Of a DNA stretch of 64,000 bases, positions 56,855-57,658 are shown in pieces; position 1 is the first letter of the stretch, and each line of letters begins with the position of its first letter. The notes under the pieces are model-generated. The model was not told the origin of the DNA. It worked only from the letters and a program-made list of their open reading frames with translations, and searched no databases. Source of the stretch: an uncultured Rhizobacter sp. (GTDB lineage: Bacteria > Pseudomonadota > Gammaproteobacteria > Burkholderiales > Burkholderiaceae_C); assembly GCA_964247075.1 (NCBI GenBank), contig CAXTSS010000003.1, positions 206,353-270,352 on the forward strand, given 5' to 3'. The position numbers and the translations under genes were made by a program.

Positions 56855-57322
56855 ATGCGCGCGGATGTTCCGATGGGGCGCCGGCGATGGCTGAAAGGCG
56901 CGGGCGCCGTCACCGCCGTGATCGCGAGCGGGGTCGGGCTGCCTTCGCCGGCAGCGGCCGCGCCCGACGAGGCGCTCGCGTTTGCGGCGCAGAGTTTCTC
57001 CGAGGTGATCGGCGCGCTCGGCGGCGTGCCGAAGGCGAGCGCGAAGATCGCACTCGAACTGCCGCAGGTGGCCGAGAACGGCGCGCTCGTGCCGATCACC
57101 GTGACCAGCGCGCTGCCCGGCACGAGCGAGATTCTGATCGTGGTCGACGGCAACCCGCAGCCTCTGGCGGTGCGCTTCACGATCCCCGAAGGCACCGAGC
57201 CCTTCGTCGCCACGCGCATCCGCATGGCGCAGAGCGGAACCGTCTATGCCGCCGTGCGCAGCGACGAGGGCCTGTGCGCCACGGCGCGCGCGGTGCAGGT
57301 GATCGTGGGCGGTTGCGCCTGA
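56855..57322 (+). CDS. soxY: SoxY-family sulfur carrier with C-terminal GGCA
   Basis: RBS GAGGA, GRRRWL Tat signal, PQVAENGALVP, NPQP, TRIRMAQSG, V.VIVGGCA*. Confidence 0.88.
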   Translation: MRADVPMGRRRWLKGAGAVTAVIASGVGLPSPAAAAPDEALAFAAQSFSEVIGALGGVPKASAKIALELPQVAENGALVPITVTSALPGTSEILIVVDGNPQPLAVRFTIPEGTEPFVATRIRMAQSGTVYAAVRSDEGLCATARAVQVIVGGCA

Positions 57323-57346
57323 AGCCGGACCGGGAGCCGACGCAGC

Positions 57347-57658
57347 ATGTCCGAGCCGATCCGCATTCGAGCTCGTGTCCAACAGGGCGTGGCCGACGTC
57401 ACGATCCTGATGCCGCACCCCATGGAGACGGGCCTGCGGCAGGACGACGCCGGCGACCTCGTGCCTGCGCACTTCATCACCGACGTGTCGGTCACGCTCG
57501 GCGAGCGCAGCGTGTTCTCGGCACGCATGAGCTTTGCCGTCGCGCGCGATCCGTTGCTGAAGTTCCGCTTCGCCGGGGCTGCCAGCGGCCAGCGCCTTCG
57601 CGTGGCGTGGACCGACAGCCTCGGCGAGGCGCGGATCGACGAAATCGTCATCGCCTGA
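57347..57658 (+). CDS. soxZ: SoxZ-family sulfur carrier subunit
   Basis: IRIRA, LMPHPMETGLRQD..G.LVPAHFI, DPLLKFRF, WTDSLG; no signal peptide. Confidence 0.9.
   Translation: MSEPIRIRARVQQGVADVTILMPHPMETGLRQDDAGDLVPAHFITDVSVTLGERSVFSARMSFAVARDPLLKFRFAGAASGQRLRVAWTDSLGEARIDEIVIA

Follow-up and report, generated by a model that had tools for sequence, protein, structure and literature searches.

Two adjacent, co-oriented genes at 56855–57658 on the plus strand of a 64,000-nt stretch of DNA from an uncultured Rhizobacter sp. (the window, which here means that stretch at its full length) encode a SoxY/SoxZ pair. Our analysis supports the view that the lineage of this pair is bound up with its operon partners. 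Judging from sequence comparison, the SoxY of the window belongs to a separate short-arm lineage, distinct from the canonical copies. SoxYZ is the textbook protein-bound "swinging arm" of sulfur oxidation, and genome annotation assigns any SoxY above cut-off to the thiosulfate pathway. The present case is a coherent SoxY/SoxZ lineage which is labelled canonical by pipelines, yet appears to be wired to other enzymes and is present in genomes without SoxB. It is the lineage and the partners that are unusual; the arm chemistry and the fold are ordinary. No description of the gene cassette or of the short-arm SoxY clade was found in the open-access literature.

The soxYZ genes, their cassette and their phylogeny

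The soxY gene (56855–57322, plus strand) is preceded by the ribosome-binding site GAGGAG and encodes a protein of 155 residues. In a Pfam profile search this protein scored 98.2 bits against PF13501 (cut-off 28.4), and it narrowly passed TIGR04488 (SoxY_true_GGCGG; 128.3 bits, cut-off 125). A twin-arginine signal, GRRRWLKGAG, was read directly from the sequence at residues 8–17. The C-terminus is ...QVIVGGCA followed by TGA. The carrier arm Gly152-Gly153-Cys154-Ala155 occupies 57308–57319, with Cys154 at 57314–57316 and Ala155 at 57317–57319, and a lone Ala after Cys154 stands in place of the GGCGG ending. In an alignment of 29 sequences of the clade (A1), every sequence has G153 and C154, and nearly every one has G152.

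The soxZ gene (57347–57658, plus strand) lies directly downstream after a gap of 24 nt. Its product, 103 residues without a signal peptide, scored 97.2 bits against PF08770 in Pfam (cut-off 25) and 97.5 bits against TIGR04490 (SoxZ_true; cut-off 76). The canonical SoxZ loop is [S/A]-x-N-P-[Y/F]; that of the window reads A-R-D-P-L, within ...FAVARDPLLKF, and its A-R-D-P motif is at 57542–57553. An earlier note on this DNA had pointed out both the VIVGGCA-stop ending of SoxY and the ARDP of SoxZ. Our direct reading confirmed both, and their conservation across homologues indicates that they are not due to chance. By its predicted features, the pair is a genuine SoxY/SoxZ-type sulfur carrier, ordinary in fold and arm type.

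This redox operon, whose conserved synteny spans seven genes, consists of a divergent gene for a LysR-family regulator, followed by genes for a calcineurin-type metallophosphoesterase (MPE), a SoxA-like cytochrome, an Lcl_C protein, SoxY, SoxZ, HiPIP and, as a less constant member, a PufC-like cytochrome. We compared it with cassettes from 23 species-level Burkholderiales genomes (L010–L032), from metagenome contigs found by a scan with a 10-sequence alignment (A3), and from one more genome. The order from MPE to HiPIP was present in L010–L032 as far as each contig extends, with the divergent LysR gene ahead of it. It was also found in L045–L049, L052, L056 and L081, which comprise the metagenome contigs and the additional genome. 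The PufC-like gene was located downstream, or upstream in some loci. No SoxB was found in any of the cassette loci. The non-cassette SoxY loci with enough flanking sequence nearly all had the GGCGG ending, with SoxB within 1–4 kb.

In the MPE tree, all cassettes with embedded soxYZ fell into one clade, with a Shimodaira–Hasegawa-like approximate likelihood ratio test (SH-aLRT) value of 87. Its sub-groups mirror those of the SoxY tree: L081 with L045; L056 with L031/L032; the window with L010; and the Comamonas-lk/Rhodoferax set. This mirroring indicates that soxYZ probably entered the operon once and was co-inherited with it afterwards. SoxB was present in 16 of the 23 cassette genomes. In G004, G006, G012, G016, and G017, SoxB was not found, no SoxA scored above cut-off, and there was no SoxY-family gene beyond the cassette SoxY. 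The absence of SoxB, SoxA and any other SoxY from these five metagenome-assembled genomes (MAGs) is likely.

The phylogeny of SoxY was analysed with a careful maximum-likelihood tree of 101 rows, 21 of them from cassettes, from which the residues after the arm Cys had been trimmed off. All 21 cassette rows, including the distant L045 and L046, were in one clade (ultrafast bootstrap, UFBoot, 99; SH-aLRT 96). Tails of 0 or 1 residue were found in 52 of the 58 rows inside the short-arm clade vs 7 of the 43 outside it. The two GGCGG SoxY of the host genome were placed elsewhere, among GGCGG sequences. Forcing them together with the window SoxY gave a tree that was 175 log-likelihood units worse and was rejected by the approximately unbiased (AU) test (p-AU 2.5e-5). 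The expectation that the SoxY would not group with the canonical copies was thus borne out by this check.

In a quick tree of 177 rows the wide short-arm group formed one clade (SH-aLRT 81–96), and in another of 191 rows the core clade was stable, holding 29 of 31 cassette rows (SH-aLRT 95). Our conclusions rest on the careful 101-row tree, the wide clade being unstable between trees, and the linkage of the clade's deeper half to the cassette depends on L045, L046, and L081 only. A Thiocapsa protein ending in GGCA (P0150) is a database-only member of the short-arm clade. The earlier proposal of a carrier specialised for its operon partners holds for the lineage, as indicated by the synteny of 32 loci, the 99/96 clade, the co-divergence with MPE, the lack of SoxB nearby, and the five genomes without other Sox genes.

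Variation of the arm tail and of the SoxZ loop

The C-terminus of SoxY has been described in textbook terms as GGCGG (PMC6067878). This ending is the majority rule, but the thiosulfate pathway does not require it: the Thermus thermophilus SoxY that was crystallised with SoxB (4UWQ_B) ends in ...RVTVGGCG, and in an Aquificales MAG (L036) a SoxY with the tail GGCG is followed by SoxB 1.2 kb further downstream. GGCGG is the ending of the Paracoccus and Chlorobium chains. The statement that thiosulfate-pathway SoxY ends in GGCGG was therefore an over-generalisation.

The best 120 homologues of the window SoxY all have GGC or SGC plus one residue, or a close variant. Their last six residues were TVGGCG in 63, TVGGCA in 16 and IVGGCA in 5, and endings in S, V, and R were also present. 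When 1.8 billion proteins were represented at 50% identity, the nearest 150 representatives had the tail GG in 47 cases, G in 26 and A in 14, followed by S, N, R, and others. All 32 cassette-embedded SoxY were short-armed: GGC was followed by G in 17, by A in 8, by R in 2, and by S in 1, and the remaining four comprised one SGC plus S, one GAC plus S, one GGC plus GKA and one GGC in which the Cys is the last residue. At least 31 changes of tail length were counted across the 186 SoxY rows of the 191-row quick tree, which makes it a labile trait.

The last residue would thus be under weak constraint, with Ala among the states it may take; this is ordinary variation, and by itself it is no sign of a new function. 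The claim that GGCA as such marks a non-canonical carrier was not supported by this comparison, since members of the clade differ in their final residue (G most often, then A, then S, R or none) and GGC plus one residue occurs in the SoxB-linked systems of Thermus and L036. Tail-type classification gave a divided answer: the short arm does mark the cassette clade (32 of 32 embedded copies), but tail length is not diagnostic of non-canonical Sox. The short tail is a clade character and not a proven specificity determinant. Because a tail of GGC plus one residue is compatible with canonical Sox, tail spelling alone is no basis for calling a SoxY non-canonical.

The one-residue rule is broken by two loci, L052:1485-1916 and L056:3908-4327, one of which has GGCGKA and the other ...VTVGGC-stop. 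A database protein of 280 residues in the cassette SoxY clade (P0128) is a SoxY-SoxZ fusion, which continues for some 117 residues beyond ...VGGCGFELEGD.... Either the fusion is natural, and the arm Cys internal, or it results from a lost stop codon or an assembly error.

In SoxZ, Asp-Pro-aliphatic was found in 31 of 31 cassette-embedded copies, and Asn-Pro in 31 of the 34 others. Ala at the Ser/Ala position was found in only 10 of the 31 cassette copies, and the canonical SoxZ proteins of the host genome themselves read AKNP. The change typical of the clade therefore appears to be Asn to Asp, together with aromatic to Leu/Val after the Pro; the Ser/Ala position is non-discriminating. So, from the contrast of ARDP with S.NP that had been drawn earlier, the Asn-to-Asp part remains and the Ser-to-Ala part falls away.

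Compared with the other aligned copies, cassette-embedded SoxY typically has G128, T129, Y131, R135, R145, and V151. The Lys of canonical K-V-T-[IL]-G-G-C, six residues before the Cys, is replaced by Q/E, and Val takes the place of Ile/Leu at 151. A second Cys was noticed in the window SoxY, Cys142 (57278–57280, ...EGLCATAR...), 12 residues N-terminal of Cys154. Among the 29 sequences of A1 it is common only to the window SoxY and its nearest relative, P0002, the position being mostly Tyr/Phe elsewhere. A few clade members (P0072, P0104, P0116, and L024) have a Cys four residues C-terminal of this position. An intramolecular disulfide between Cys142 and the arm Cys154 is conceivable.

Operon partners, proposed function and alternatives

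The LysR-family regulator gene (53338–54330, minus strand; Pfam HTH_1 and LysR_substrate) has the same divergent placement in most cassette loci. Its product scored 221.9 bits against NCBIfam CbbR (cut-off 450), and is CbbR-like below the equivalog cut-off. All the following genes are on the plus strand. The MPE (54750–55760; PF00149, 59 bits), whose true start is perhaps further upstream, is predicted to be exported by the twin-arginine translocation (Tat) system. Among solved structures it is closest to GpdQ and Rv0805 and not to SoxB, and its identity across the cassette loci is 60–94%. The next gene encodes a monohaem SoxA/TsdA-like cytochrome c (55775–56284; PF21342, 44.7 bits) with CANCH and with a conserved Cys in INWCIENP, at the position where Rhodovulum SoxA and TsdA have their haem-ligand Cys in the alignment. 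The Lcl_C/DUF1566 protein gene (56355–56843; PF07603, 94.8 bits) has an uncertain start and is syntenic in all cassette loci. HiPIP with a Tat-type signal (57706–58032; PF01355, 52.4 bits) comes after SoxZ in the cassette loci that reach that far. The PufC-like tetrahaem cytochrome gene (58029–59093; PF02276, 407.6 bits) completes the cluster, and no plus-strand terminator was found within it. The encoded protein is 54% identical to the genome's own PufC, which adjoins pufLM on contig C26, and is thus a paralogue. Several lake Comamonadaceae MAGs have their PufC-like gene upstream of the LysR gene and not after HiPIP. The pufLM genes were found in the window's genome, and 15 of the 23 further cassette genomes have them too. 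In a long-read Rhodoferax MAG (G017) the cassette (L026, C1:143521-155775) is about 10 kb from pufLM.

Canonical SoxYZ (Paracoccus pantotrophus 2OXG/2OX5; Chlorobium limicola SoxY 2NNC) resembles the window pair in its folds, families, SoxY Tat signal, signal-less SoxZ and GGC arm. It differs in ending with GGCGG and in being encoded beside SoxAX/SoxB, whereas the window pair has GGCA and lies between Lcl_C and HiPIP with no SoxB. Canonical SoxZ has N-P-Y/F and the window SoxZ D-P-L, and the window SoxY is in a separate clade. Thermus thermophilus SoxYZ (4UWQ, with SoxB) likewise has one residue past the arm Cys, but it is part of the canonical SoxB-dependent pathway, and its SoxY is not especially close to that of the window (51.8 bits vs 63.8 bits for Chlorobium).

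Curated precedents for altered arms outside SoxB clusters are TIGR04487, the SoxY-related AACIE arm protein, and TIGR04557, the quinoprotein dehydrogenase-associated SoxYZ-like carrier. The host genome carries both kinds, on C6 (AACVEP) and on C18 (two fused copies, GGCSAPP). The window SoxY scored 47.8 bits against TIGR04487 (cut-off 172), and its arm is GGC, not Ala-Ala-Cys. The scores for TIGR04557 were 64.3 and 58.7 bits (cut-off 140), and soxY and soxZ of the window are two distinct genes, separated by a stop codon. As for the Cys-ligated haem enzymes SoxAX and TsdA, the operon cytochrome keeps the haem-ligand Cys of SoxA/TsdA but consists of one SoxA-type domain, and SoxX is absent. The two-metal hydrolase holds the syntenic place of SoxB, the dimanganese thiosulfohydrolase, but it is of the GpdQ/Rv0805 class and not of the SoxB/5'-nucleotidase class.

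We give a little better than an even chance to the reading that the pair is a Tat-exported short-arm SoxYZ carrier, inherited with a pre-existing operon, mainly in phototrophic Burkholderiales, and serving a SoxB- and SoxCD-independent mini-Sox cycle. Short-arm soxYZ would have entered in a single event, between Lcl_C and HiPIP, into an operon that already comprised MPE, SoxA-like cytochrome, Lcl_C, HiPIP and PufC-like genes. SoxY would be exported by Tat with SoxZ as its partner, and Cys154 would be the reactive residue on a flexible C-terminal arm. The SoxA-like cytochrome with its Cys-ligated haem may oxidatively couple thiosulfate or sulfite to Cys154, and two electrons may pass first to HiPIP, next to the PufC-like cytochrome with its four haems, and then to the reaction centre or the respiratory chain. 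The two-metal phosphoesterase would hydrolyse the terminal sulfonate to sulfate, in the role of SoxB. With sulfite, the cycle would close without SoxCD; reconstitution work on Paracoccus is said to have given a sulfite cycle that needs no SoxCD. SoxA/TsdA-type enzymes are described as forming S-S bonds to thiosulfate through cysteine S-thiosulfonate (PMC4423706). The data show the gene content, the clade, the synteny, the co-divergence and the hosts lacking Sox; we infer the substrate, the adduct chemistry, what the hydrolase does, the route of the electrons, and whatever part the short arm or SoxZ Asp68 may play.

A more specific proposal is put forward tentatively, with somewhat less than even confidence. 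Short-arm SoxYZ may be the dedicated carrier of an undescribed periplasmic module for the oxidation of sulfur oxyanions, free of SoxB and SoxCD, built from the SoxA-like Cys-haem cytochrome and the GpdQ-class two-metal hydrolase, and linked through its own HiPIP and the PufC-type tetrahaem cytochrome to photosynthetic or respiratory chains in freshwater and soil Burkholderiales, and the short arm and the Asn-to-Asp change of SoxZ may be adaptations to the active sites of the partners. If true, this would be a second carrier-based route of sulfur-compound oxidation in common freshwater phototrophic Betaproteobacteria, and soxY/soxZ matches in metagenomes would have to be read differently.

Several findings weigh against the proposal of a SoxB-independent cycle. 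The phosphoesterase is outside the family of SoxB, and SoxY and SoxZ are still above the NCBI canonical equivalog cut-offs. The 191-row quick tree splits the wide short-arm clade in two, with weak deep nodes. The five genomes without SoxB are MAGs of one sub-lineage and are thus non-independent. Finally, the MPE/cytochrome pair was also found without SoxYZ nearby.

In the genus g214, the operon consists of MPE, SoxA-like, Lcl_C, HiPIP, and PufC-like genes, with no soxYZ between Lcl_C and HiPIP, and no SoxB was found in the five sampled g214 genomes (1.8–2.1 Mb). A stand-alone GGCGG soxYZ, divergent from the MPE gene and with tatC/tatB next to it, adjoins the cassette in three of the four fetched g214 loci (L082:5400-10150, also L083 and L084; genomes G425, G525, and G607). 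A further case, in G647, has the same arrangement judging by coordinates. A wider tally of 18 of 401 genomes included one unpublished genome (G446), on which none of our claims is based. The stand-alone SoxY groups with canonical sequences. The g214 SoxZ motif, VSRNPL, is an intermediate of the canonical and cassette motifs. G457 (99% complete; L086, C5:83200-100200) has only MPE, SoxA-like cytochrome, and Lcl_C, and no SoxY-family gene was found in it. MPE/SoxA-like cytochrome pairs of about 40% identity occur in other Pseudomonadota with no SoxYZ nearby (L079:8846-13682 and L080:7806-10661). One of them adjoins cbb3-type oxidase genes (COX1, FixO) and the other a di-haem cytochrome c peroxidase gene, and the host genomes of these distant pairs all hold SoxY elsewhere. 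Because such pairs occur without SoxYZ, and in G457 without any SoxY, the core enzymes would have no strict need of the carrier, which is a further point against the proposal. A GGCGG carrier seems to be acceptable to them.

One alternative, unlikely in our view, is that SoxYZ is an accessory holder of sulfane sulfur, which would load or regenerate a persulfide/Cys haem ligand or buffer reactive sulfur while the enzymes act on free substrate. The pairs without adjacent SoxYZ agree with it, as does that of G457, which lacks any SoxY, and as does the finding that SoxY is the least conserved cassette protein (41–88% identity vs 72–94% for the phosphoesterase). However, soxYZ was kept in 32 of 32 embedded loci with the arm and the Tat signal intact, and g214 keeps a stand-alone SoxYZ beside the cassette. 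This retention and the neighbouring g214 soxYZ therefore suggest that SoxYZ may be a stoichiometric functional partner.

It is improbable that the pair is an ordinary redundant SoxYZ paralogue serving the genome's SoxAX/SoxB/SoxCD, with passengers as neighbours and neutral drift in the tail. Such a role would fit the passing of TIGR04488 (128.3 vs 125) and TIGR04490, the database label 'thiosulfate oxidation carrier protein SoxY' given to members of the clade, the GGCG arms that occur with SoxB in Thermus and in the L036 SoxB cluster, and the full SoxB locus on host contig C7. It does not fit the strict synteny and co-divergence with a cassette to which SoxB is never adjacent, the five cassette genomes without SoxB, SoxA or other SoxY, or the separate clade, whose union with the canonical copies was rejected by the AU test.

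We doubt as well that the short or altered tail is itself a specificity determinant that fits the operon enzymes and insulates the carrier from canonical Sox. Tail length does track the cassette-embedded clade almost perfectly, and the clade-specific changes beside the arm (Q/E for Lys, Val151) and the Asn-to-Asp change of SoxZ follow the same pattern. But what follows the Cys differs between copies (G, A, S, R, none, or GKA), GGCG occurs in canonical SoxB-linked systems, and tail length is labile, as the changes counted above indicate. The pairing of the cassette with GGCGG SoxYZ in g214, and the persistence of the short tail where the genome has no canonical Sox to be insulated from, argue against tail-based insulation, and this part of the earlier note is unsupported.

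That the carrier handles other species, such as organosulfur compounds, thiophosphate, seleno compounds or thioarsenate, is very unlikely: the phosphodiesterase-type GpdQ/Rv0805 class of the hydrolase, the regulator that is CbbR-like or selenium-LysR-like only below cut-offs, and an Lcl_C partner of unknown role would allow it, but every assignable redox partner is of the sulfur-oxidation type (SoxA/TsdA domain, SoxYZ) and SoxY is present in every genome that harbours one of the distant pairs.

Sulfur carriers of the host genome

The host assembly is 4.8 Mb in size and 97% complete, and it is that of a phototroph: contig C26 carries pufLM together with a puf-linked PufC. The assembly contains six SoxY-domain genes, which fall into four arm types: two with GGCGG, on C7 (next to SoxB) and C5; two fused ones with GGCSAPP, on C18; one with AACVEP, on C6; and the cassette copy with GGCA, on C3. 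This is an unusually rich parallel set of sulfur carriers for one genome. The sole SoxB is in a full SoxB locus on C7, a different contig from that of the cassette. The SoxY and SoxZ of the window are 34–40% identical to the C7 and C5 copies. We rejected a recent in-genome duplication of canonical soxYZ as their origin on the basis of this identity and the AU test.

The closest public relative of the locus was found in a Rhizobacter sp. MAG (L010). The host genome also contains a paralogue of the cassette regulator, 63% identical to it, which adjoins a second HiPIP gene (G000:C11:13430-14711). This second HiPIP is 35% identical to that of the cassette, so that LysR and HiPIP genes are paired twice in the host genome.

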